DNA of 64,000 nt, taken from contig JAFWNB010000003.1 in assembly GCA_017545505.1 (NCBI GenBank), positions 76,830 to 140,829 of the forward strand, given 5' to 3'. Below are positions 1,789-24,482 of this stretch, in pieces. A program made the position numbers and the translations under genes. The notes below the pieces were generated by a model. It did no database searches. It was given only the letters and a program-made list of their open reading frames with translations, and was not told where the DNA came from. Numbering within the stretch: the stretch's first letter is position 1; each line of letters begins with the position of its first letter. Source of the DNA: Candidatus Saccharimonadota bacterium. Lineage in GTDB: Bacteria; Patescibacteriota; Saccharimonadia; Saccharimonadales; Saccharimonadaceae.

Positions 1789-2028
1789 TCAAGCGTCTTC
1801 TTCCCACGGAGGAGTCTCTTTGTTAGTTGTATCCAATTTATCTATTGGATCTTCGTACACGACGGCATTTCTAAATTCTCTTGCCATTACAAAAATCGTT
1901 AATCCGATAAAAACAAACAGACAAATAAGCGGAACTAAAGTCCTGACCTTGCCAGCGATACGCAGGACAAATGTCACAACTGTCGCCCAAAGCGACAACA
2001 TATCGACAGTTAATAAAAACTTGTCCAT
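1789..2028 (-). CDS. Small two-TM hypothetical membrane protein
   Basis: 79 aa, strong SD (ggaggtg) upstream, two hydrophobic stretches, palindrome at the stop (~1771-1798). Confidence 0.6.
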   Translation of the reverse strand: MDKFLLTVDMLSLWATVVTFVLRIAGKVRTLVPLICLFVFIGLTIFVMAREFRNAVVYEDPIDKLDTTNKETPPWEEDA

Positions 2029-2230
2029 AGATTCACCTCCTTAATGTGCAAGTCCCCCATGTATTCTTTCATTTTAACCTTTTTTTATAAAAATGTCAAA
2101 TCGCGCCAAAATACGAAAAATAGCATAAATACTCTTTACAAGTTTATAAAAATAGTCTAAAATAGTAGGGTAGAGATTTGGAGCTGGTTTTTATTAGCGC
2201 TCCAAACATAATAATATAAAAGGAGAAAGA

Positions 2231-3412
2231 ATGGCAAATTTTGACCGTTCCAAACCACACATTAATGTGGGTACTATGGGTCACGTAGACCATGGTAAAA
2301 CTACTTTAACTGCGGCAATTACTAGCGTTCTCGCGAAAAACTTTCCGTCAGACGTAAACAAACCTGTCGCTTATGACCAAATCGATAACGCTCCAGAAGA
2401 AAAAGCACGTGGTATCACCATTGCTACTTCTCACCAGGAGTACGAATCCAGCAAACGCCACTACGCACACGTAGATATGCCAGGCCACGCCGATTACATC
2501 AAAAACATGATTACCGGTGCTGCCCAAATCGATGGCGCTATCCTCGTAGTAGCAGCAAACGATGGTGCTTTACCACAAACTAAAGAGCACATTCTCTTAG
2601 CTCGCCAGGTAAACGTACCTAAAATTATCGTTTTCCTAAACAAAATGGACCTCGCCGACCCAGAAATGGTTGAGCTCGTCGAAGAAGAAGTTCGCGACAT
2701 CCTAGAGAAAAACGGCTTCGATCGCAATTGTCCAATCATCCGCGGTTCTGCAACCAAAGCCCTCGAAGGTGACCCAGAAAACGAAAAGGCAGTAATGGAT
2801 CTTATTGACGCTATGGACGAATATTTCGATATCCCAGAGCACGATCTAGACAAACCATTCTTAATGCCAATCGAAGACGTCTTCTCAATCAAAGGTCGTG
2901 GTACCGTTGCTACTGGCCGTATCGAACAGGGCGTCGTCAAACTAAACGACGAAGTCGAAATCGTAGGTCTTCGTGACACCCAAAAATCAGTTGTTACCGG
3001 CATCGAAGCCTTCCATAAGACTTTGGATCAGGGTCAAGCTGGCGATAACGCTGGTTTACTACTTCGTGGTATCGAACGCGATCAAATCGAACGTGGTCAA
3101 GTAATTGCCAAACCTGGCACCATTACCCCACACACCGAATTTGAAGCCGAAGTTTACATCCTTAAGAAAGAGGAAGGTGGCCGCCACACTCCATTTTCTA
3201 AAGGTTACAAACCACAATTCTACTTCCGCACTACCGATGTTACTGGTGAAGTAGAACTTCCAGCTGACAAAGAAATCGTCATGCCTGGTGACCAAGTAAC
3301 CTTCAAGGTTAAACTCTTGGCTCCAGTCGCTATGAACGACCAAGATCGTTTCGCTATCCGCGAAGGTGGCAAAACCGTCGGCTCTGGTGTTATCACCAAA
3401 GTTATCAAGTAA
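2231..3412 (+). CDS. tuf: Elongation factor Tu
   Basis: [48 protein letters not shown]. Confidence 0.99.
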
Positions 3413-3426
3413 TTTGATACTTAATT

Positions 3427-3456
3427 AAAAAATCTCCCCAAAAGGGGAGATTTTTT
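3427..3456. terminator. Bidirectional intrinsic terminator
   Basis: aaaaaatctcccc-aaaa-ggggagatttttt between convergent genes. Confidence 0.85.
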
Positions 3457-4324
3457 ATCTAATTTCTTCAAGATTTATCTTTTCACTTACAGGTTTTTCT
3501 AATTCTTCGGGATTAGACAAAAGATACTGCAACAAATCGGCGGATTTCGCAAAATAATAGCCATCCGCAATCCGTTCGTCAAAATTCATCCCCCATTCAC
3601 ACATCTTGCGTGTGGATTTTTTTCCATCTTCTATTATCTCTTCATCTCGTATCTCGCCCATCGTAAGTAGGGAAGACGAATTACCAAAATCCGTAATATT
3701 GTGATGAATTGCCCCACAACCAATTGAACCGAGATTCGATAAAATCATCGTACTATAATAAAGATTGTCTTCAATTAATGAGCTAGGCAAAATCCCTTTT
3801 TTATCGCACCATTTAAAAAGCCCAACAATCGGGACGCGAAGAATATTTGGAAGCTTTCCCAAAGTATCAATTGCAGAATTGGCCCCAGCTTTTTCGATAC
3901 CACCAGTTTTGCGATTGCGAAAACTATCGATCTTTTTCTTTATCTTATCGCCTAGCGTATAAATATTATCATTCTTTTCAATCGGAATCATTACCATCAT
4001 CTCTTCTGAATGATCGTCAAAACTCACTTTGGCTACAAATGACAAAACTATTTGCTCGTGCTCCCACAAGTGACGATTCGCTACAAAGTAATTAAGTTTT
4101 GGGCGATTATAAACGGTTTTCGCAATAGCCGTCAAAAAAGCATGAAAATAAGTAACACTTTCACCGGCTTTTTTCTTTTTTTCGATAAATTTTGACAGAT
4201 TGGTTAAATCCATCTTTTGATTAATATAAACATCACTCACGCTACGATTAGGTTTCAAATCAATGCTAATCTGCGCCATCCCAGTGACATTCTTTACCCT
4301 TCGGGCTCCTCCGTATTTCTTCAT
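3455..4324 (-). CDS. Stand-alone 2-oxoacid dehydrogenase E2-like (acyltransferase catalytic domain) protein
   Basis: ILSNLGSIG and FDERIADGYY motifs (E2 DHRxxDG equivalent). No lipoyl domain. Start revised to ATG 4324, 6 nt after TATAAT. Confidence 0.75.
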   Translation of the reverse strand: MKKYGGARRVKNVTGMAQISIDLKPNRSVSDVYINQKMDLTNLSKFIEKKKKAGESVTYFHAFLTAIAKTVYNRPKLNYFVANRHLWEHEQIVLSFVAKVSFDDHSEEMMVMIPIEKNDNIYTLGDKIKKKIDSFRNRKTGGIEKAGANSAIDTLGKLPNILRVPIVGLFKWCDKKGILPSSLIEDNLYYSTMILSNLGSIGCGAIHHNITDFGNSSSLLTMGEIRDEEIIEDGKKSTRKMCEWGMNFDERIADGYYFAKSADLLQYLLSNPEELEKPVSEKINLEEIR

Positions 4325-11757: not shown

Positions 11758-11982
11758 ATGGCAGAAAAATCTGAAAAGTCCGAAAAAGGTAAAAGTGGTG
11801 CAGGTAAATTCTTTTTAGGCGCTCTACTTGGTGGTATCGCTGGAGCAGTCGCTGGTAAATTTATCAAAATTGGCGCAGATGACGGCGGCGAAGAAATTGA
11901 AGAAAAATGCAATTGCAAAGGTAAATGTGATTGCAAAAAAGAGCCAGAAAAGAAACCGGAAGAAAAAAGTACTAAGAAATGA
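11758..11982 (+). CDS. YtxH-like small protein
   Basis: GKFFLGALLGGIAGAVAG motif, charged tail, SD aggagg. Confidence 0.6.
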   Translation: MAEKSEKSEKGKSGAGKFFLGALLGGIAGAVAGKFIKIGADDGGEEIEEKCNCKGKCDCKKEPEKKPEEKSTKK

Positions 11983-14900
11983 AATTAAAGCCTAGTGATT
12001 TTGTACACCTACACAATCACACGCATTATTCTTTACTGGATGGGCTAACTAAAATCCCAGAACTTGTTGATTTTGTTAAAAAAGATGGCATGGAAGCCGT
12101 AGCCGTTACAGACCATGGCACTATGTCTGGTTTGGTAGAGCTATATAAAGAATGTAACGATAAAGGAATTAAACCAATTCTCGGTCTTGAGGCTTATGTT
12201 GCAGCTCGCAAAATGACAGACAAAGACCCAGCTCACGATAAACAAAGATTCCACATTACTTTGCTTGCCATGAATAATCAAGGTTATGAAAACCTTTGTC
12301 GGATTATGAGTAATGCAGAAGAATATGGTAAATATTACAAACCTCGTACAGACCACGACGAGTTAGAAAAATATAATGAAGGAGTCATATGTCTCTCTGG
12401 TTGTATGGGGTCAGAAATCTCCGAAGCTATTCGTGCAAACGACGACAAAAGAGCATTAGACCTGATAGAGTGGTATAAAAATACCTTTAAAGACCGTTTT
12501 TACCTAGAAATGCAGGACCATGGCCACCCGAAATCCTCTACTCATTCTGAAGAGCAAAAGAAAGTTAACGATTGGCTTATGGCGCACGCCAAAGAACTAA
12601 ATCTTCCACTCGTCGTTACCTGCGATGCTCACTATTTAAAACACGAGGACCAAGATGCGCACGAAGTTTTACTTTGTATTGGTACAGCCGCATATCTTTC
12701 TGACACTAATCGTATGAGCTTAAAAGATTACGACCTCCATGTTATTTCGTCGCAAGAAATAATTGACCACTGGCAAGATACCTGCCCGGAAGCCGTGTTG
12801 AACACTAAAAAAATCGCCGAGCGCTGCAACGTAGATTTGCAACTTGGTCGTATTTTGATTCCGAAATTTCCAGTTCCAGATGGTGAAGACGAAAAAACGT
12901 ATTTAGACAAACTAGTTTTTCAAGGTCTAACTCATCGTTACGGCGACAAAAGTCTTGAAGAAGCCACGAAACTAGACATAAAAGCTTGCCGCAAAATACT
13001 AACTGAAGTCGATAAAAAACGTGACGACGACCATAAAATACTCCCGCGCATCGACTATGAACTGTCTGTAGTAGATAAAATGGGCTATAATGGCTACTTT
13101 TTGATTGTGCAAGACTTCATTAACTGGGGTAAAAGCCAACGAATCGTTTATGGCCCAGGCCGTGGCTCTGCAGCTGGCTCAATTTTAGCATACGCTCTTA
13201 GGATAACTGACCTAGACCCCCTCAAATATGATCTTCTTTTCGAAAGATTTCTAAATCCAGACCGTATTAGTATGCCAGATATCGATACCGATATTCAGGA
13301 TACTAGACGCGACGAAGTAATTGAATATTGTACAAGAAAATATGGTGAAGCAAGAGTATCAAACATCGCAACCTTTGGTAAAATGATGGCTAAAAACGCC
13401 GTACGAGATGTCGCACGCGTACTAGAAGTACCCTACGCTGAGGCAGATCGCTTGGCAAAGCTTGTCCCAGATCCAGTACAAGGTCATCATGTACATCTCG
13501 CTGATGCAATTAAAGACGTACCAGATCTAAAACAAGAATATGAAACCAACCCCACCTCTAAAGAAGTTATAGATTTTGCTTCTAGACTGGAAGGAACCAT
13601 TAGGAATCACGGCGTTCACGCATGTGGTGTTATCATCGCGCCAGATGATTTGGTTAAGTTCTTACCGCTAGAAGTTTCCGCTAAGGGTCCAATCGCTGCC
13701 CAATTCCCAATGGGTCAAGTCGAAGAACTAGGTCTGCTTAAGATGGATTTTCTTGGCTTGTCTAACCTTTCGGTTATTAATAATGCCTTGCGTATGATTC
13801 GCAAAGTCTATCATAACGATATAAACTTATCCAATCTTCCATTGGACGACAAAAAGACCTACGAACTACTACAACGCGCCGAAACCACCGGTGTATTCCA
13901 ATTGGAATCTGCCGGTATGAAACGGTACTTAAAAGATCTCAAAGCTTCTACCTTTGAAGATATTATCGCTATGGTGGCATTATATCGTCCAGGACCAATG
14001 CAGTTTATTGATTCATTTATTAAGAGAAAACACGGCGAAGAAAAAATCACCTATCTTCACCCTGGTCTAGAAAATTCGCTTAAAAACACCTACGGGATTT
14101 TAATTTACCAAGAACAGTTCATGCAGATTAGTAAGGAATGGTGTGGCTTTACTGGCGGCCAGGCCGATACTTTACGTAAAGCCGTAGGAAAGAAAAAAGT
14201 CGATCTCATGAATAAGGTCAAACCGGAATTCATTGAAGGGGCAATTAAAGTTGGTGGGGCAACTAAAGAAATTGCCGAAACTTTCTGGGATCAGTTGCTA
14301 GAATTTGCGAATTATTGCTTCAATAAGTCACATGCCGCATGTTACGCTTTAATAGCCTATTGGACAGCCTACCTAAAAGCGCATTACCCCGATGCCTTTA
14401 TGGCGGCACTTATGACGGCAGATATGCGCTGGACCGATCGCCTTGCTATCGAAATCGCTGAGTGTAAAAAAATGGGATTAAAAGTATTAGGCCCAGATAT
14501 CAACGAGAGCTATGGTGATTTTGGCATCGTAGGCGGTGAAAAAACCATACGCTTTGGTCTTTCTGGTATCAAAAACATGGGCAAGGCCTTAGTAGAGGAA
14601 TACGTCATACCAGAGCGCGACAAAAATGGTCCGTTCAAATCTGTTTGCGATTTTGCTAAACGAGTAGATTCCACTAAATTTAATAAAAAATCCTGGGAAT
14701 CCGCCATCAAAACCGGTGCATTTGACCGTTTTGGATCTTCGCGCTCAGATTTATTGTTTAATCTAGAAGCTATTCAGGCTTATGGAGCTAAAATTCAAAA
14801 AGATGTAGGTTCTGGCCAAACTGATTTATTTGGTATGATGGGCGAAGCTGGGGCAATCCCAGAAGTAGAAATCAAACCCGCTCCAGTACAACATCCAGAC

Positions 14901-15695
14901 AAAGAGTTACTTCTTTGGGAACGCGATTTAATGGGGCTTTATCTTTCAGCCCACCCACTAGATAAATACGACACTTACTTCGAAGAACAAACCCATCCAA
15001 TGTCTTTAATAACAGCCGAAAATGACAACAAAATTGTAACAATCGGCGGAATTATCACGACCGTACGTACCATTTTAACGAAAAAAGGCGATAAAATGGC
15101 CTTTGTTAAAATAGAGAATAAAACCGACGAAACCGAATTTATAGTTTTTCCGAGTATATTTGAAGAATTTGGAGGAAAACTAGTAGTCGACAACGTCGTT
15201 AAAGTGAGAGGGCGCGTCAATGCTAAAGATAAAAATGGCAACGTTACTTCTGACGCTAAAATACTAGCAGAAGCTGTAGAATTGATTTCGGACGAAATCC
15301 TAGAAAACTATAAATCAACCGGCACCAAATTAGCCGCGCCAATCACCGCGCCAAATCAAGGTCAAAAAAGAGGTCGCTCATCAGCCGAAAGAGTCTATAA
15401 TAAAACGCAAAAGGATTCTTCAATACCAGAAGAAAAACATATTTTAAAAGAGCCACCCAAAGACCCCCGTAAAGAACGCTTATATATTTTAATTAATAAT
15501 CCAGAAGACACGGAAACACTAACCGCCATTCGCCGCCTAGCAGACATCTACCTCGGGATGCAAGAAGTGATATTAGTATTGAAAAATGGCGAAGAAAAAC
15601 GCCCACTCCGTATGCCATTTAAAGTTGAAGTAAGTGAAGAATTACTTACAAAACTGAACGATTTAGTAGGCGCAGACAACGTCAAATTATGCTAA
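11979..15695 (+). CDS. dnaE: DNA polymerase III alpha subunit
   Basis: PHP FVHLHNHTHYSLLDG, GPGRGSAAGS, MPDIDTD, FNKSHAACY, OB fold. Confidence 0.98.
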   Translation: MKLKPSDFVHLHNHTHYSLLDGLTKIPELVDFVKKDGMEAVAVTDHGTMSGLVELYKECNDKGIKPILGLEAYVAARKMTDKDPAHDKQRFHITLLAMNNQGYENLCRIMSNAEEYGKYYKPRTDHDELEKYNEGVICLSGCMGSEISEAIRANDDKRALDLIEWYKNTFKDRFYLEMQDHGHPKSSTHSEEQKKVNDWLMAHAKELNLPLVVTCDAHYLKHEDQDAHEVLLCIGTAAYLSDTNRMSLKDYDLHVISSQEIIDHWQDTCPEAVLNTKKIAERCNVDLQLGRILIPKFPVPDGEDEKTYLDKLVFQGLTHRYGDKSLEEATKLDIKACRKILTEVDKKRDDDHKILPRIDYELSVVDKMGYNGYFLIVQDFINWGKSQRIVYGPGRGSAAGSILAYALRITDLDPLKYDLLFERFLNPDRISMPDIDTDIQDTRRDEVIEYCTRKYGEARVSNIATFGKMMAKNAVRDVARVLEVPYAEADRLAKLVPDPVQGHHVHLADAIKDVPDLKQEYETNPTSKEVIDFASRLEGTIRNHGVHACGVIIAPDDLVKFLPLEVSAKGPIAAQFPMGQVEELGLLKMDFLGLSNLSVINNALRMIRKVYHNDINLSNLPLDDKKTYELLQRAETTGVFQLESAGMKRYLKDLKASTFEDIIAMVALYRPGPMQFIDSFIKRKHGEEKITYLHPGLENSLKNTYGILIYQEQFMQISKEWCGFTGGQADTLRKAVGKKKVDLMNKVKPEFIEGAIKVGGATKEIAETFWDQLLEFANYCFNKSHAACYALIAYWTAYLKAHYPDAFMAALMTADMRWTDRLAIEIAECKKMGLKVLGPDINESYGDFGIVGGEKTIRFGLSGIKNMGKALVEEYVIPERDKNGPFKSVCDFAKRVDSTKFNKKSWESAIKTGAFDRFGSSRSDLLFNLEAIQAYGAKIQKDVGSGQTDLFGMMGEAGAIPEVEIKPAPVQHPDKELLLWERDLMGLYLSAHPLDKYDTYFEEQTHPMSLITAENDNKIVTIGGIITTVRTILTKKGDKMAFVKIENKTDETEFIVFPSIFEEFGGKLVVDNVVKVRGRVNAKDKNGNVTSDAKILAEAVELISDEILENYKSTGTKLAAPITAPNQGQKRGRSSAERVYNKTQKDSSIPEEKHILKEPPKDPRKERLYILINNPEDTETLTAIRRLADIYLGMQEVILVLKNGEEKRPLRMPFKVEVSEELLTKLNDLVGADNVKLC

Positions 15696-15705
15696 AAAAT
15701 AAAAC

Positions 15706-15801
15706 TGTCGAACCAACTTCGACAATTTTTGGCAATAATTACCACTGTTATTTGCAATTTTGCGATTAATTATTTACTTTTTGTCAAATTTAGTATATAA
15801 T
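15706..15801 (+). repeat. Promoter block copy 1 (palindrome + TTTACT-17-TATAAT)
   Basis: Near-identical to 18558-18652. Palindrome tgtcgaa-ccaac-ttcgaca at 15706-15724; -35 at 15773-15778; -10 at 15796-15801. Confidence 0.85.
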
Positions 15802-15937
15802 TAGCACAGTTCAAAAAAATGAACTAGTCCATTAAAAAAGAAGGGTTTCGACCTTTCGCGACAAATATTCCTCCAAGTAAACTTGGAGTTTTATATATAA
15901 GTTGTCAAGTTGAAAACAAATAGAAAGGAGAGACATT

Positions 15938-16129
15938 ATGAAGAAAATGTCCAACGAAACCCCGAAGATCCGCAGAGCGAAGCAGGCGACACCGCCGCCG
16001 CTGCCTCCCAGGAGAGAAAAACCGGCACCTCCGCCGCTTCCTCCTCGGAGAACAGAACAGGCGCCCCCGCCGCTGCCTCCCAAAAGGAAAAAAACGGCAC
16101 CCCCGCCGCTTCCTCCTCGGAGAAAATAA
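15938..16129 (+). CDS. 63-aa Pro/Arg-rich peptide with four PPPLPP(R/K)R repeats
   Basis: SD aaggag 8 nt upstream; 36-nt repeat units with synonymous Pro codon variation. Confidence 0.7.
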   Translation: MKKMSNETPKIRRAKQATPPPLPPRREKPAPPPLPPRRTEQAPPPLPPKRKKTAPPPLPPRRK

Positions 16130-16138
16130 ATTAGGCAT

Positions 16139-16485
16139 AGATCTGTCACCTAAATGGGATACCATTTAGGTGATCCGACCTTAAGTCGGATCTTGTCCCC
16201 AGCTTAGCTGGGTCTCATGGAGCGAAAAAAGCCAAGAAGACAAATCTTGGCGATGCGCACGCCAAGATAAACTCTTACTCTTTGGTGGACGCACCAAGAG
16301 ATGGCTTTATAAGCAGTGAGACAGATCTGGGAGCCCGCGTAGTTACGCAATATCATTCCGGAGTCTTCCTATCTAGTAGAGATTATCTCACTGGATAGGA
16401 ACGTTCTCCGAAGGCGCCCCCCACACGCGACCTTCTAGCTGATATCGGCAGAAGGATAGTGACGAAAGGAGAAATCCTTCGCGTA
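16139..16485 (+). ncRNA. Unidentified structured RNA, copy 1
   Basis: ~125-nt core (16199-16322) near-identical to 19178-19303 with compensatory changes; shared 3' domain acgcg...agga-GAAA-tcct...cgcgt. Confidence 0.7.
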
Positions 16486-16494
16486 AACCAGTTA

Positions 16495-16526
16495 CCCCCG
16501 ACTCAGAAAGAGTTGGGGGCTTTTTA
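16495..16526 (+). terminator. Intrinsic terminator of cassette 1
   Basis: cccccgactc-agaaa-gagttggggg then cttttt. Confidence 0.8.
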
Positions 16527-16595
16527 TGCTATAATTAAGCTAGACCCGGCGAGGATAACCTCTTAAACTCTTACGACCGAGTAGCAGGAGGCTAT

Positions 16596-16817
16596 ATGGA
16601 AATCAATCCTTTAACCACCATTATTCGCGATCGAAATAACACTAAAAAATACTTCATCTATACTTTCTATTCCGAACAGACAAAAAAATGGGAAACCGTT
16701 GCCGTAAAGAAAGTTAATTATGAAAGTATCAAGGAAGTCAAAATGGAACAATCGTATTCCCGCGAAGAAGCTCTTCGCCACCATTTAGACTTCATCGCCC
16801 ACTACAGTGTTTTTTAG
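16596..16817 (+). CDS. Hypothetical protein (73 aa)
   Basis: SD aggagg, own terminator hairpin at ~16836-16870. Confidence 0.65.
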   Translation: MEINPLTTIIRDRNNTKKYFIYTFYSEQTKKWETVAVKKVNYESIKEVKMEQSYSREEALRHHLDFIAHYSVF

Positions 16818-16986
16818 AGTTTTTTGATAGCACCTTCAGCCCAGATTGTATCTGGGCATTTTTCTTTTTTTATCATTTATTTTAAATATATACAAATTTA
16901 TATAATAGATATTGACTATTTATACACTATATGATATAATCAAAAAGTAAGCCTTTAGGCTAGGTACTTTTACAGTGCAGGATTAC

Positions 16987-17052
16987 TGATTGCAGAATAG
17001 GGTTTGACGGGATAATTACATTTACATCTCTTTTAATCCTATTCTGCAATCA
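16987..17052 (+). promoter_or_regulatory. Long leader hairpin upstream of the sigma4/alpha-CTD gene
   Basis: Perfect 15-bp stem tgattgcagaatagg/cctattctgcaatca, downstream of a TTGACT...TATAAT promoter. Confidence 0.5.
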
Positions 17053-17142
17053 ACTAAATCAAAAAAGGCGTAGCAAGGAGACGCTTTCCAGGTTTAAAGC
17101 AGAGTAACTTGAAAAAAATCGAAAAGAAAGGCGAACGAAAAA

Positions 17143-17973
17143 GTGGGAAAAAGCAGAGAAAAATATAATATCTTCGGAACTAACAAAGAAACTTGGGGCC
17201 AGCGCCTCGCAAATGCTATTTGCGGGCATTCATACGAGTATGGTATACTTGGATGCTTCCTTACGGAAGTGACCGAACTCCTTAAGGCAAAACTCTCTGA
17301 AAGAGAGTTCGAAATTGCCGTAAGGTGTTTCGGTATAAATGCCGCAAATAAAAGAGAGACTCAAAAGGCTGTAGCTGCCAGTTTGGGTATCGCGGAGTCC
17401 CAGATGAGATCCACATCCAAAAAGGTTGTGGAAAAAATCAACCGGACCTGCGGTCCAGACCTGAGGGGGCTAATGCTGAAACCCGATGAGGTCTCGAAAA
17501 GAATCGTCGGCCTAGAACACGAAAACGAGCGACTCAGAAAGCAAGCGGTGGACCCCGCTAGCTTCACGCGCCTTCAGCAGGAGGCCAAAAACGCTCGGAA
17601 CGCCTATGCCGGCGAAAAGGCCAAGCGCGAAAAGCTTGAAGCCGAACTTGCTAAGCTTGTCGCCTCAGTCGAGAAGCTCAAGGAAGAGCGCCGAGTCGCT
17701 ATTAACGAAAAGGCGAAAGCCCTGAGCAAATACGACGCAATAGTAACTCAGGTAACCAACGTGATAACAGCAACGATAGACTTTAACGTCACGTTAGAGA
17801 CCTTTGACTTCAGCGCGGAAACCATGAATGAGCTCACTAGAGCTCATATCGTGAGTGTAGAAGCTCTTCTAAAGAGAGACTCTCACTCCCTCCGAAGATT
17901 AGGAGTGAGCAATAAAGCGATCTCTGAAATCATGGAGAAACTGAGGCTTAAGGGCTTCGAGCTGACCGCGTAA
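17143..17973 (+). CDS. sigma70 region 4 HTH + coiled coil + RNA polymerase alpha-CTD-like fusion protein
   Basis: LSEREFEIAVRCFGI...TQKAVAASLGI (sigma4 pattern); LETFDFSAETMNELTRAHIVSVEALL...EIMEKLRLKGFEL (alpha-CTD pattern). GTG start; terminator ~17997-18028. Confidence 0.6.
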   Translation: MGKSREKYNIFGTNKETWGQRLANAICGHSYEYGILGCFLTEVTELLKAKLSEREFEIAVRCFGINAANKRETQKAVAASLGIAESQMRSTSKKVVEKINRTCGPDLRGLMLKPDEVSKRIVGLEHENERLRKQAVDPASFTRLQQEAKNARNAYAGEKAKREKLEAELAKLVASVEKLKEERRVAINEKAKALSKYDAIVTQVTNVITATIDFNVTLETFDFSAETMNELTRAHIVSVEALLKRDSHSLRRLGVSNKAISEIMEKLRLKGFELTA

Positions 17974-18083
17974 AGTCCTACATACAACCTTGCACTAACC
18001 AGCGAATATTAATTCGCTGGTTTTTTTATAAAAATGGCCCGTTCAATGAACGAGCCGGTTTTGATGAAAATGGTTTTGGTAAA

Positions 18084-18386
18084 TTAATAATAATTAATTG
18101 CCTTTTTGTAACTCGTATCGTCCAAGATTTCCCTGATAGTCTTCTCGACAAAAGGAAAAACGGTCTTAGTTTCTGCATCTATAAACCCGATTTTTATTAA
18201 CCTATTAATTATAATAGAATCGAGAATCGGTTCCGCAAAAACACAATACGAACCAAGAGCCATAAAGGCATCGAAATCCTTCGCAACTAAAATGAGCGTC
18301 CTACACAGTATTTCTCCATATGTTAGCTCTTTCGAATCGTTACGGTTCGGCTTTCGGCCTTTCGCAAAACTAATAATATCCCCCAT
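18084..18386 (-). CDS. Hypothetical protein
   Basis: ATG 18386 after ggag; hairpin terminator ~18032-18062. Confidence 0.55.
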   Translation of the reverse strand: MGDIISFAKGRKPNRNDSKELTYGEILCRTLILVAKDFDAFMALGSYCVFAEPILDSIIINRLIKIGFIDAETKTVFPFVEKTIREILDDTSYKKAINYY

Positions 18387-18557
18387 CTTATTATCTCCCA
18401 TCTGACAAAAGTACAATACCTACAGTTAAAAGTATATTATATTAATATAACACATAATATATTTCTAGTCAAGAAGACCGCAATAATTTGTCATCAATTA
18501 TATTTCAAATAGCTAGAAAAGATATTGGAAAGGTATATGATAAGTATAGATAGGATT

Positions 18558-18652
18558 TGTCGAACCAACTTCGACAATTTTTATAAAAATTACCCCTGTT
18601 ATTTGCAATTTTACGATTAATTATTTACTTTTTGTCAATTTTAGTATATAAT
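18558..18652 (+). repeat. Promoter block copy 2
   Basis: Near-identical to 15706-15801; -35 at 18624-18629, -10 at 18647-18652. Confidence 0.85.
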
Positions 18653-18786
18653 ATATCACAAGCTTACATAATTAAGCTAGAAATTTAAAAAGGAGGAGAT
18701 TATTCGCTTCATTTTCTTTTCGAAGGAATTTCCTTCGAAATTTCACATATAGAAACAATAAGGAAATTCACGAAAAGGAGATGCAT

Positions 18787-19062
18787 ATGTTCTACAAAAT
18801 CGCAAGCTTTCGGTATTATGATGGAGCCATCGACGAAAAAGCAAGCTTTTACGTCAAAGAGGAAGATATTTCTTCCTTCGTCAACTACCTGATAAAATGC
18901 GGTTATTCCGGCGAATTCGATGGAATTAGCGGTATCTACACCATAAAATCCTTCGATAGATATAATGATCCTATACATTCAACGATCATTATAGACCGGA
19001 TTCGCATCTTTAACAGGAAGAGGTGGCATTCATTTGTTCGCGATTCAGTGCCATCGTCTTGA
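18787..19062 (+). CDS. Hypothetical protein (cassette 2 cargo)
   Basis: SD aaaaggag 6 nt before ATG 18787; no similarity to the cassette 1 peptide. Confidence 0.6.
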   Translation: MFYKIASFRYYDGAIDEKASFYVKEEDISSFVNYLIKCGYSGEFDGISGIYTIKSFDRYNDPIHSTIIIDRIRIFNRKRWHSFVRDSVPSS

Positions 19063-19139
19063 CGTTGGGCTACTGACTTATCGGGAAAACCTTGCGGTTC
19101 GGTCGAAATCGTAGGAACGTTTATAAGACGTGATCGACC

Positions 19140-19384
19140 TTCTTCTATTGCTTAAATTATCGCCAGTTTAAGCATAACCAGTTCTACTGGGTCCCACGGA
19201 GCGAAACAAAAAGCCAAGAAGACAAATCTTGGCGGTGCGCACGCCAAAATAAACTCTTACTCTTTGGTGGACGCACCGAGAGAAGGCTTTATAAGCAGTG
19301 GGGTAGAAGAATTCCAAAAAGGCGGATAAAATCCGAACGAACGCGCTCCGATAAGGAGATACTAACAAAGGAGAAATCCTCGCG
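19140..19384 (+). ncRNA. Unidentified structured RNA, copy 2
   Basis: Homologous to 16139-16485; closing helix ttcttcta/tagaagaa; compensatory changes in several stems. Confidence 0.7.
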
Positions 19385-19387
19385 TAG

Positions 19388-19412
19388 GGAAAAGCCGCCT
19401 GAGCGGCTTTTT
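19388..19412 (+). terminator. Intrinsic terminator of cassette 2
   Basis: aaaagccgc-ctga-gcggcttttttt. Confidence 0.85.
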
Positions 19413-19484
19413 TTCATGCATTTAATATAATTCGTAATAAGATACCACTAAATGATTCTTTATCTATTATGGTATAATTAATCT

Positions 19485-19901
19485 ATGAAAAAGCCCAAAA
19501 CCCTAGATTCGGTAACAGTCAATCGTAAAGCAAAATACGATTATATTTTGGGCGATGAACTCACCGTAGGCATGGCACTTTCTGGGCCCGAAGTTCGCTC
19601 TATTCGCGATCATCACGTTCAGCTTAAGGGTTCATTTGTTACCATCAGAAACTCAGAGCTCTGGTTAAATAATCTTACTCTCGGCGCCGAAACTACCCGC
19701 AATATCAAGCTCCTCGCCACCAAAAAACAAATTAAAAGCCTGGAGCGCGAAAAGGTCGCCGGCTCCACCATCGTACCAGTCAAACTCCTTGGTGGTGCTC
19801 GCCATATTAAACTCGTAATTGCTATTGGCAAAGGAAAGAAAAAATATGACAAACGCGAATCAATCAAAAAACGCGACATAGAGCGAGGACGCTATGCTTA
19901 A
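19485..19901 (+). CDS. smpB: SsrA-binding protein
   Basis: NRKAKYDY, G..L.G.EV.SIR, IGKGKKKYDKRESIKKRD. Confidence 0.95.
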   Translation: MKKPKTLDSVTVNRKAKYDYILGDELTVGMALSGPEVRSIRDHHVQLKGSFVTIRNSELWLNNLTLGAETTRNIKLLATKKQIKSLEREKVAGSTIVPVKLLGGARHIKLVIAIGKGKKKYDKRESIKKRDIERGRYA

Positions 19902-23300: not shown

Positions 23301-23351
23301 ACCATCATTATACATCATTATTATTTGTGCTATAATAACTATACAATATTA

Positions 23352-23440
23352 ATATCAAGAAGGAGCGAGGGAACGGCCCAACGACCTCCTGCCAACCTAG
23401 CTTTGCCAAGGTGGTAATTCCGACCAGAAAGGAAAGATAT
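23352..23440 (+). promoter_or_regulatory. SAM-I riboswitch upstream of metK
   Basis: atatcaaga...gagggaacggccc...gccaacc...aaggtggtaattcc...gaaagatat matches the SAM-I core; P1 atatc/gatat abuts the start codon. Confidence 0.88.
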
Positions 23441-24482
23441 GTTCTATCGAACTGCGGAGAGTGTTTCTCCAAAACATCCAGACAAACTTTGCGACCAAAT
23501 CAGCGATGCGATTTTGGATGCCTATTTAGCTAAGGATCCTAACGCACGCGTAGCCGCCGAAACCTGTGGTGGACACGGCGTAGTATTTGTGACTGGCGAA
23601 ATCACCAGTACGGCGAACGAAGTAGATATTCCAAAAATCGTCAAACGCATTGCAGGTGATGATGTAGAAGTTCATACTAAAGTCGTCAAACAATCACCAG
23701 AAATCGCTCAAGGCGTAGATACTGGTGGTGCCGGCGACCAGGGAATCATGATTGGCTACGCCTGTGATGAAACTCCTGAAATGGTACCACGCGAAGTAAT
23801 CTTAGCTCGCCGCCTCAATCAGTTTATTTATGAAAAATATCCATATGACGGCAAAACTCAAGTCACTATCGCCCCGAACGGCTCGATCGATTCAATTGTG
23901 GCAAGTTTCCAGAATGTACCACACGATAAATTAGAAAAGTTGGTTCGAGAGTTTATTGAAAAATTTGGGTTAATTGATGCTCCAAAACCATATTCTGAGG
24001 ACCATAAGCTTGGGCGAGCGCCCTCGAGCGCGTCCGAAGAAGATGGTTTGGAGCACGCAATCAAACTTCACATTAACCCGGCTGGCGACTGGAACCAAGG
24101 CGGCTTCGATGCTGATACTGGACTTACCGGACGCAAGCTTATCGTAGATAATTATGGCCCACGCGTCGCTATTGGCGGTGGTTGCTATTCTGGCAAAGAT
24201 CCAAGTAAAGTAGACCGCTCCGCTGCCTACATGGCTAGAAAAATTGCCGTAGATTATTTAAAAAAACGCCACGCCCATGAAGTTTTAGTCCGCCTAGCTT
24301 ACGCCATCGGCTACGCCGAACCATTAGAAAAAACCGTAATCATCGATGGAAAACCCGAAGAAATCGAAGGTTACGACTTAACACCAAACGGTATTATTAA
24401 ATTCTTAGATTTAAAACGACCAATCTACGAAAAAACTGCTATGTGGGGCCACTACGGCGAAGGTTTTGACTGGGATAAATAA
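23439..24482 (+). CDS. metK: S-adenosylmethionine synthetase
   Basis: ESVSPKHPDKLCDQISD, GAGDQG, DTGLTGRKLIVD, GKDPSKVDRSAAY; carries a palindromic insertion. Confidence 0.97.
   Translation: MFYRTAESVSPKHPDKLCDQISDAILDAYLAKDPNARVAAETCGGHGVVFVTGEITSTANEVDIPKIVKRIAGDDVEVHTKVVKQSPEIAQGVDTGGAGDQGIMIGYACDETPEMVPREVILARRLNQFIYEKYPYDGKTQVTIAPNGSIDSIVASFQNVPHDKLEKLVREFIEKFGLIDAPKPYSEDHKLGRAPSSASEEDGLEHAIKLHINPAGDWNQGGFDADTGLTGRKLIVDNYGPRVAIGGGCYSGKDPSKVDRSAAYMARKIAVDYLKKRHAHEVLVRLAYAIGYAEPLEKTVIIDGKPEEIEGYDLTPNGIIKFLDLKRPIYEKTAMWGHYGEGFDWDK
23985..24049 (+). repeat. Palindromic repeat element, in frame within metK
   Basis: Core gaggaccataagcttgggcgagcgccctcgagcgcgtccga matches 46160-46225 and 57588-57660. 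Confidence 0.8.

Follow-up and report, generated by a model that had tools for sequence, protein, structure and literature searches.

Transcripts in which a structured RNA follows a coding sequence have been described in several forms. In Staphylococcus aureus, RNAIII carries the small open reading frame (ORF) hld in its 5' part and a multi-hairpin domain in its 3' part, and the RNA is better conserved than the peptide. The enterobacterial small RNAs (sRNAs) CpxQ, SroC and DapZ are derived from the 3' untranslated regions (UTRs) of mRNAs; they are simple in structure, 50-150 nucleotides (nt) long and Hfq-dependent, and contain the terminator region of the mRNA. In flaviviruses, the exoribonuclease-resistant RNA (xrRNA) is a compact structure just past the stop codon, beyond which a 3' fragment, the subgenomic flavivirus RNA (sfRNA), accumulates. 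The locus described here lies in a window of 64,000 nt from a Candidatus Saccharimonadota bacterium (contig JAFWNB010000003.1, positions 76,830 to 140,829 of the forward strand), and all positions below are those of this window unless a locus is named. Between dnaE (11979-15695) and smpB (19485-19901), the window contains a 3.8-kb island with two related units, unit 1 from 15706 and unit 2 from 18558, each of which comprises, in this order, a palindrome, an A/T-rich promoter of sigma-70 type, a leader of ~130 nt, a small ORF, a structured RNA and a terminator. We hold with moderate confidence that these units give rise to dual-function transcripts, whose conserved 3' domain is a stable RNA of a new and narrowly distributed family.

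A repeat search found three blocks common to units 1 and 2. The first (15706-15730 and 18558-18582) is identical at 25 of 25 positions and contains the palindrome TGTCGAA-N5-TTCGACA, the second (15727-15801 and 18578-18652) is 91% alike and contains TTTACT-17-TATAAT, and the third (16199-16325 and 19178-19307) is 78-93% alike. The promoter block as a whole (15706-15801 and 18558-18652) is 91-100% identical between the two units and the RNA core (16196-16322 and 19175-19304) is 93% identical, while the 14-nt motif AAAGGAGAAATCCT stands 5' of both terminators (16465-16478 and 19367-19380). Pattern searches allowing 3 mismatches gave exactly two occurrences of each block in the 64 kb, against an expectation of 0. 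The shared promoter block and downstream RNA that the original prediction had described are therefore borne out, and the palindrome, the TTTACT-17-TATAAT promoters and the ORFs of 63 and 91 amino acids (aa) that it had listed were likewise found, in the repeat search, the promoter scan and the ORF list. A sister species, represented by locus L008, whose SmpB is 84% identical, carries one unit of the same kind (L008:5183-6010), which is homologous in its promoter, its leader, its core and the sequence behind the stop codon. In promoter and core, units 1 and 2 are closer to each other (91-100%) than either is to the L008 unit.

The palindrome lies upstream of the promoter on the plus strand in both units (15706-15724, identical to 18558-18576). 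At unit 1 it is weakly hairpin-like after dnaE, and at unit 2 no plus-strand gene stands upstream that it could terminate. Because it is perfect at unit 2 without such a gene, has decayed in a related strain (L009) in which the promoter is gone, and is substituted in L008 by a different palindrome at the matching position with the 5-nt spacing kept, the palindrome may serve as an operator. The predicted promoter of unit 1 (15745-15801, plus strand) consists of the A/T-rich block CTGTTATTTGCAATT..., a -35 element TTTACT (15773-15778) and a -10 element TATAAT (15796-15801), and is 78% identical to L008:5183-5284; that of unit 2 (18596-18652, plus strand) has its -35 element at 18624-18629 and its -10 element at 18647-18652. 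Unit 1 ends (16465-16526, plus strand) with the motif AAAGGAGAAATCCT, followed by an intrinsic terminator at 16495-16519 with a T-run, and unit 2 (19367-19414, plus strand) with the same motif, followed by the terminator GCCGC-CTGA-GCGGC with a T-run; the motif GGAGAAATCC is also present in L008. There is one promoter and one terminator per unit. As a separate observation, the 37 nt from the -35 to the -10 element of unit 2 (18620-18656) are the only part common to other contigs with different flanks in the DNA runs X25 and X27, so that the promoter core may be of a type common in these communities.

The structured RNA of unit 1 is predicted at 16139-16328 on the plus strand. It is closed by helix P0 (16139-16147 with 16320-16328) and contains H1 (16148-16171), H1b (16172-16192), H2 (16198-16212) and the core with P1-P6 (16196-16322). 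In unit 2, the domain (19077-19355, plus strand) has an additional outer helix (19077-19084 with 19348-19355), inside which lie P0 (19140-19147 with 19304-19311), H1 (19150-19173), H2 (19178-19190) and the core (19175-19304). The fold is a junction, in which a long P0 encloses H1, H2 (with H1b as an extra in unit 1) and a core made of P1, a GC clamp, P3, P4, P5 and P6. The domain measures ~190-280 nt and begins 10-16 nt past the stop codon in all three units.

This secondary structure, which remains a model, is well supported although not proven. RNAalifold independently gives the same core as our own structure, and in the alignment of the three sequences the share of paired cells is 94.5%, which falls to 29-46% once partners are shifted by 1-3 columns. 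Across the three units, both members change in five pairs. The sequences of P0, H1 and H2 are wholly different in the three units, yet 5/5 to 10/10 positions pair each time; the P0 strands, for instance, are AGAUCUGUC/GACAGAUCU, UUCUUCUA/UAGAAGAA and AAACCUGUC/GGCAGGUUU. The fold z-scores of the 3' UTRs are -11.4 for unit 1 and -4.6 and -8.9 for the other two, versus -1.4 to +1.2 for the housekeeping genes dnaE, smpB and xth. Moreover, strain variants taken from metatranscriptome and metagenome contigs retain pairing or give G-U pairs (16218 T>C, 16267 A>G, 16274 C>T, 16321 A>G and 19082 C>T), and the variant 19248 A>G restores a C-G pair of P5, with which unit 2 folds as unit 1 does. Since the G-U pairs arise only when the plus strand is read, the RNA is placed on that strand.

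Between the two species the core is 83% identical. At the gathering threshold, 15600-19600 has no match to Rfam 15, and raising the cutoff to E = 10 gives only 12 matches of chance level, none of them on the core. Transfer-messenger RNA (tmRNA), considered since smpB adjoins, was ruled out by ARAGORN, which found none in the window, L008, L009 or L011, and by Rfam, which gave none either. Likenesses to hammerhead, K-turn and T-box elements noticed by eye in the core were dropped, being without Rfam support. No description of such an RNA was found in the literature, and we regard it as a new candidate family of a known general kind, the structured, stable 3' UTR or dual-function RNAs, with three copies in two species. 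As a side observation, the P5 hairpin (16243-16268 and 19225-19250) has the loop (A/G)UGCGCA, in which UGCGCA is self-complementary, so that dimerization by kissing loops would be possible.

Expression was followed in eight rumen metatranscriptomes from four studies that hold pieces of the island, and in all eight the 3' domains are the only or the deepest island contigs. In four of them (X2, X3, X5 and X6), the sole contig from the 4.2 kb is the 3' domain of unit 2, within 19048-19362; overall, the contigs of this domain fall within 19010-19385. In X1, contig depth is 34 for the 3' domain of unit 2, 8.7 for its ORF, 2-5 for the gene of a 276-aa island protein and 2 for dnaE. The unit 1 contig of X10 (16128-16331) matches the P0-closed domain (16139-16328) almost exactly, and that of X7 spans 16183-16368. 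In the rRNA-depleted X2, the RNA domain has a depth of 4.7, similar to the 2.7 of the host's own near-identical contig in the highly expressed 2-4 kb region of the window, which may encode an elongation factor and was used as a yardstick only. Apart from this, the region 2000-4000 shows very high metatranscriptome depth with many contigs at 90-95% likeness, which points to cross-mapping, the likely source being a conserved gene that other organisms express highly.

Uniform DNA contamination cannot yield such a pattern of contigs. As the contigs stop short of the terminators and no internal promoter is predicted, a processed fragment with protected ends would be the simplest reading. The features of dual-function and 3' UTR-derived sRNAs are found together here, in that a small ORF and a structured RNA lie on one transcript and the RNA domain exceeds the coding part in depth.

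The leaders and ORFs, which the original prediction had taken for unrelated, are tied together by the L008 unit. The leader of unit 1 (15808-15937, plus strand; fold z = -2.9) has a hairpin at its 5' end, an A-rich stretch and a second hairpin with a U-run (15871-15888), and is homologous to that of L008, in which the hairpin and U-run ahead of the ribosome-binding site recur. The leader of unit 2 (18660-18786, plus strand; fold z = -6.6) shows a weak but alignable likeness to the other two. Good ribosome-binding sites stand before the ORFs in all three units. The unit 1 ORF (15938-16129, plus strand) encodes a basic, proline-rich peptide of 63 aa with PPPLPPRR four times, on 36-nt tandem repeats (15992-16129). 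The differences between its repeats and the strain variants at 16030 and 16099 are synonymous, and the variant at 16083 changes K to R; that these differences are synonymous or conservative suggests that the ORF is translated. The unit 2 ORF (from 18787, or 18781, to 19062, plus strand) encodes a small alpha/beta protein of 91 or 93 aa, which matches the 88-aa ORF of L008 (BLASTP E = 3e-8). The latter ends in ...RPALPPRRN-stop, the unit 1 ORF in ...APPPLPPRRK-stop, and the post-stop sequence TAGGCATA.A.CTGTCA is common to the L008 unit and unit 1. The leader and flanks of unit 1 are closer to L008 than to unit 2. Given this homologous leader, an ORF like that of unit 2 and a C-terminus like that of unit 1 in a single unit, units 1 and 2 are paralogues, diverged duplicates of one fast-evolving gene family with a third copy in the sister species. 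The unit 1 ORF would belong to this family by virtue of the short motif and the homologous flanks.

The 91-aa protein was modelled by AlphaFold2 with a mean predicted local distance difference test (pLDDT) score of 86.7, and a Foldseek search with the model gave no PDB match, template-modelling (TM) scores being below 0.4. A HMMER profile search among 1.84 billion representative proteins found this family in two Saccharibacteria clusters only, together with distant relatives of 137-153 aa in rumen assemblies, and a homology search with the L008 88-aa protein gave 1 match. The covariance model of the RNA core (R1) found no RNA core beside the distant relatives when run on their loci. These relatives (L017 and L018-L024; P0126, P0129 and P0131) are stand-alone genes whose products have acidic C-terminal tails, and one contig with such a relative also encodes a dockerin-bearing protease.

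In four deep metagenomes with the host at 15-19x, a single contig carries both units, 2,872 nt apart, and there is no other match of at least 80% likeness. The search for further copies in the genome and in related data thus ended with two copies in the genome and only one more anywhere, that of the sister species, with homologous ORFs. For the scans of collections, a pattern of three core blocks was used that recognizes each of the known copies; it matched once in 185,579 GTDB genomes and twice in JGI metagenomes, and the matches inspected, one from each collection (L010 and L026), are chance matches in GC-rich coding sequence. Scans of IMG/VR gave 0 and 2 matches, the two failing model R1, and blastn of the whole island against phage GenBank entries gave no match. 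On 429 kb of related loci, R1 returned the known copies only, plus a weak match inside another RNA. From these searches, the unit family appears to be confined to two species.

Contigs identical to the window come from ruminant gut metagenomes, and the host is a rumen Candidatus Saccharibacteria, a name that its SmpB relatives bear in NCBI. The island stands out by its raised G+C content, up to 0.54 against ~0.39 outside. According to the ORF list and the promoter and terminator scan, it holds five stand-alone transcription units, which agrees with the earlier report of small additional units between the two copies. A 73-aa ORF (16596-16817, plus strand), with an extended -10 promoter directly past the unit 1 terminator and its own terminator at 16839-16857, is homologous to a 106-aa ORF of L008 (E = 5e-11). 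The 276-aa protein (17143-17973, plus strand) has a weak sigma region 4-like helix-turn-helix, a coiled coil and a C-terminal domain with the fold of the C-terminal domain of the RNA polymerase alpha subunit (alpha-CTD); its Pfam matches are weak, and Foldseek matched the C-terminal domain to alpha-CTD with a root-mean-square deviation of 1.1-1.5 A over ~60 residues. Its ortholog in L008 (295 aa; L008:8751-9638) is 41% identical, and only three relatives exist among 5.8 billion proteins, whose contigs yielded two informative loci. On the strength of its modelled fold, this protein may be a candidate regulator of the island promoters. A minus-strand ORF of 100-110 aa (18084-18416), with its own promoter (18472-18444) and terminator (18056-18036), also has an ortholog in L008 (E = 8e-16). 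The order of these genes (73/106 aa, 276/295 aa and, on the minus strand, 110/109 aa) is shared by the window and L008, and the island proteins of the two species are only 30-41% identical. PADLOC gave only coiled-coil noise on the island ORFs. Three side observations may be added. The 276-aa ORF and its 295-aa ortholog have a predicted mRNA structure that is unusually strong for coding sequence (z = -7.9 and -6.0). In front of this 276-aa ORF, a leader of ~200 nt (16945-17142; fold z = -4.4) contains a 27-nt inverted repeat (16987-17013 with 17026-17052). Outside the island, an ordinary S-adenosylmethionine (SAM) riboswitch (Rfam RF00162, 58.8 bits) lies at 23349-23443, directly 5' of metK (23439-24482).

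A comparison of the dnaE-smpB interval among relatives, which had been proposed as a check, showed that the junction differs in every related species sampled (L011, L029, L031, L034 and L036). The two genes may be adjacent (45 nt apart), separated by one minus-strand gene or by genes for 402 and 144 aa, or dnaE may be relocated; a junction that differs across relatives marks a variable spot, a hot spot for insertion and rearrangement. Differences are also seen between strains. L009, whose island is 97% identical, and run X28 lack unit 1 altogether and have an unrelated structured RNA unit in its place. The boundaries of the replacement are exact, from the dnaE hairpin to the G5 arm of the unit terminator (15725-16500 of the window versus L009:1095-1465), and X28 has a loose end at 15727. 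The L009 replacement unit has a TTGACA...TGTGATATAAT promoter and a ~320-nt RNA without credible ORF (fold z = -9.1). Together with a unit of L008 (z = -7.1), it forms a second type, type B (L009:1100-1480 and L008:3338-3740), which lies directly after dnaE and has a common promoter (TATTGACAT..TGTGTGnTATAAT), a structured RNA of 320-400 nt without credible ORF and a C5-6/G5-6 terminator. The type-B RNAs are not in Rfam. Part of the L008 unit (L008:3506-3583) resembles a miniature core, with H2, P1, an AGCGAAA/AUAAGC internal loop and P3, and is scored by R1 at 16 bits (E = 5e-4 within 1 kb). To this extent modularity is real, if weaker than had been proposed: what differs between strains is whole RNA units, not ORFs.

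On the dual-function reading, the mRNA would be translated into the small protein, and the 3' domain, closed by P0 and in unit 2 also by the outer helix, would survive decay or be cut out. The domain that persists would be an abundant stable RNA, most likely acting in trans, with a protein or a second RNA as a conceivable binding partner. Promoter and core may have been held near-identical by gene conversion or by a shared species-specific partner as leaders, ORFs and flanks drifted, and the pattern of identity suggests that the RNA domain is the part under strongest selection. Several points weigh against this reading. There are only three distinct sequences, which makes the covariation statistics weak, and ~11-14 of 500 shuffles reach the observed covariation values. 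The RNA data are assembled contigs, which show neither strand nor exact ends and whose depth reflects expression poorly. The unit 1 ORF and the L008 ORF give only E = 0.72 in BLASTP, and their common C-terminal motif is too short for significance. Pairing between leader and tail is not significant (z -1.2 to -2.0), and a leader-to-tail duplex as an interaction closing the mRNA was set aside as not convincing. Finally, a purely cis-acting stabilizer would also account for the accumulation of a 3' fragment.

The main rival explanation is accordingly that the RNA domain acts in cis only, as a 3' UTR stabilizer or a translation-coupled element that determines how much small protein is made, with the protein as the real product and the 3' fragment as a decay intermediate protected by its structure. 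Stable 3' fragments are frequent by-products of decay, and the domain lies so close behind the stop codon in each unit, 10-16 nt past it, that a ribosome terminating there would come into contact with P0 or the outer helix; the good ribosome-binding sites in three of three units and the synonymous or conservative variation of the unit 1 ORF also agree with a protein product. However, the core is 83% identical (nucleotides) where the proteins are ~30% identical (amino acids), the folded protein domain has been lost from unit 1, and a conserved junction with invariant loops and six or seven helices is more than a simple exonuclease block needs, so that we consider a cis-only role possible but rather unlikely. 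The original prediction had favoured a modular gene-capture or expression element, with promoter and RNA as the arms of a cassette and a mobilizing enzyme acting in trans. Such an element would explain the mosaic identity, with promoter and core at 91-100% and ORFs of units 1 and 2 that cannot be aligned to each other, the sharp hairpin and terminator boundaries at which unit 1 was exchanged in L009 and X28, and the dnaE-smpB junction that differs in every sampled relative. Nevertheless, the cargo ORFs are homologous rather than foreign; the genome has two copies and three distinct ones exist anywhere, the collection scans having given chance matches only and R1 no new copy; and the swap between strains takes promoter and RNA along instead of exchanging cargo between fixed flanks. 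When every island ORF of the window and of L008 was scanned with Pfam, PHROGs and PADLOC, there was no integrase, transposase or reverse transcriptase, as had already been stated of the island, and no recombinase. No att-like repeats were seen, the only flanks common to the units being promoter and RNA core. Circular or excised forms were looked for as well, and the DNA runs showed no excision or empty-site joints, in contigs only, from which rare forms could escape. Integron-type gene cassettes were rejected, there being no IntI and no attC-type sites and the units having their own promoter and terminator with homologous ORFs, and a mobile element was rejected for the lack of extra copies at 15-19x and of excised or empty-site junctions (again in contigs only). 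With no recombinase, att-like repeat, extra copy or excision joint, and with ORFs of one family, the gene-capture idea, from which the locus had its striking look, is unsupported; it is largely refuted, and we give it very little credence. Most of what the original prediction had itself named as telling against it was in fact found. The companion suggestion of an RNA-regulated effector family fared better, since the evidence comes close to a family of small proteins linked to a conserved RNA; the reading of swapped, unrelated cargo does not stand.

An attenuator resembling a riboswitch, which would control read-through into smpB (unit 2) or the 73-aa ORF (unit 1), was also weighed. GCCAAGA flanks UCUUGGC on both sides, which allows two mutually exclusive hairpins, the minimum-energy structure of unit 2 takes the alternative one, and the terminator comes after the domain. 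The downstream genes (the 73-aa ORF, smpB and a 490-aa ORF) are, however, unrelated and each has its own promoter past a strong terminator, no metatranscriptome contig extends beyond the terminators, no Rfam riboswitch matches, and the L008 substitutions back fold A (P5 and P6) and disrupt the alternative, all of which makes attenuation very improbable. Least credible of all is that the conserved block serves the minus strand, as the antisense RNA of a type I toxin-antitoxin system or as a small ORF (50 aa in unit 1 and 66 aa in unit 2). Terminator-like hairpins with T-runs do lie inside the core on that strand (16251-16231 and 19233-19213), and the ORFs are open in both window copies; yet in L008 the frame is broken by two indels, which are compensatory in the RNA helices, nearly all of the 7 substitutions that separate the two cores of the window would be non-synonymous, the G-U pairs would turn into A-C mismatches, there is no conserved promoter, and the plus-strand ORFs are basic and hydrophilic, unlike type I toxins. 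The minus-strand ORF was rejected for its frameshifts in L008. A broader and doubtful possibility is that the island as a whole is a self-contained, fast-evolving RNA island, with the 276-aa alpha-CTD-like protein as a private transcription factor, private promoters with an operator, and several unrelated, abundant and highly structured RNAs as payload, whose units are swapped by recombination at hairpin and terminator boundaries. The payload would then be the core family and the type-B RNAs that take the place of unit 1 in other strains and share the AGCGAAA/AUAAGC loop, not the proteins, and these RNAs might act in the relationship between epibiont and host or in phage conflict.

Very little has been learned so far about non-coding RNAs of Saccharibacteria and the remaining candidate phyla radiation (CPR), whose tiny genomes have scant spare sequence. 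None of the proteins of the present island is as well conserved as its RNA domain. If, as the dual-function reading supposes, the RNA acts in trans, it would be among the first regulatory RNAs proposed for the phylum. It would also give access to a hypervariable island that changes from strain to strain. The general reach of the finding is limited, because the family is very narrow, with two species.

Compared with the systems introduced at the outset, these units are most like RNAIII/hld in layout, having a transcript of ~0.5-0.75 kb, a dedicated promoter that looks regulated, a small 5' ORF, a multi-hairpin 3' domain, high abundance and an RNA part better conserved than the protein. Unlike RNAIII, with which there is no similarity in sequence or structure, the present RNA has no identified target pairing motif, its ORFs, at 63-91 aa, are longer and code for members of a folded protein family, and its 3' domain seems to accumulate apart. 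With CpxQ, SroC and DapZ, it shares a stable RNA from the mRNA's terminator region that exceeds the coding part, and processing is its probable origin as well, given that the scan predicts no internal promoter; in contrast to those short and simple sRNAs, it would form a multi-helix junction of 190-280 nt, and its host is a Saccharibacterium. The xrRNA of flaviviruses offers a parallel in its position and in the accumulation of a 3' fragment, but there is no similarity of sequence or fold, the present host is bacterial, and nuclease resistance is here only a candidate property. Integron cassettes share with the locus only the idea of repeated flanks around small ORFs in a variable island, whereas here integrase, attC and attI are missing, each unit has its own promoter and terminator, and the ORFs are homologous to each other. 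The large bacterial RNAs OLE, raiA motif, ROOL and GOLLD are comparable in their complex conserved structure, their high abundance and their frequent ties to particular neighbours; the RNA described here gives no Rfam match at E = 10 and differs from them in being smaller, in lying in a 3' UTR and in occurring in two species.

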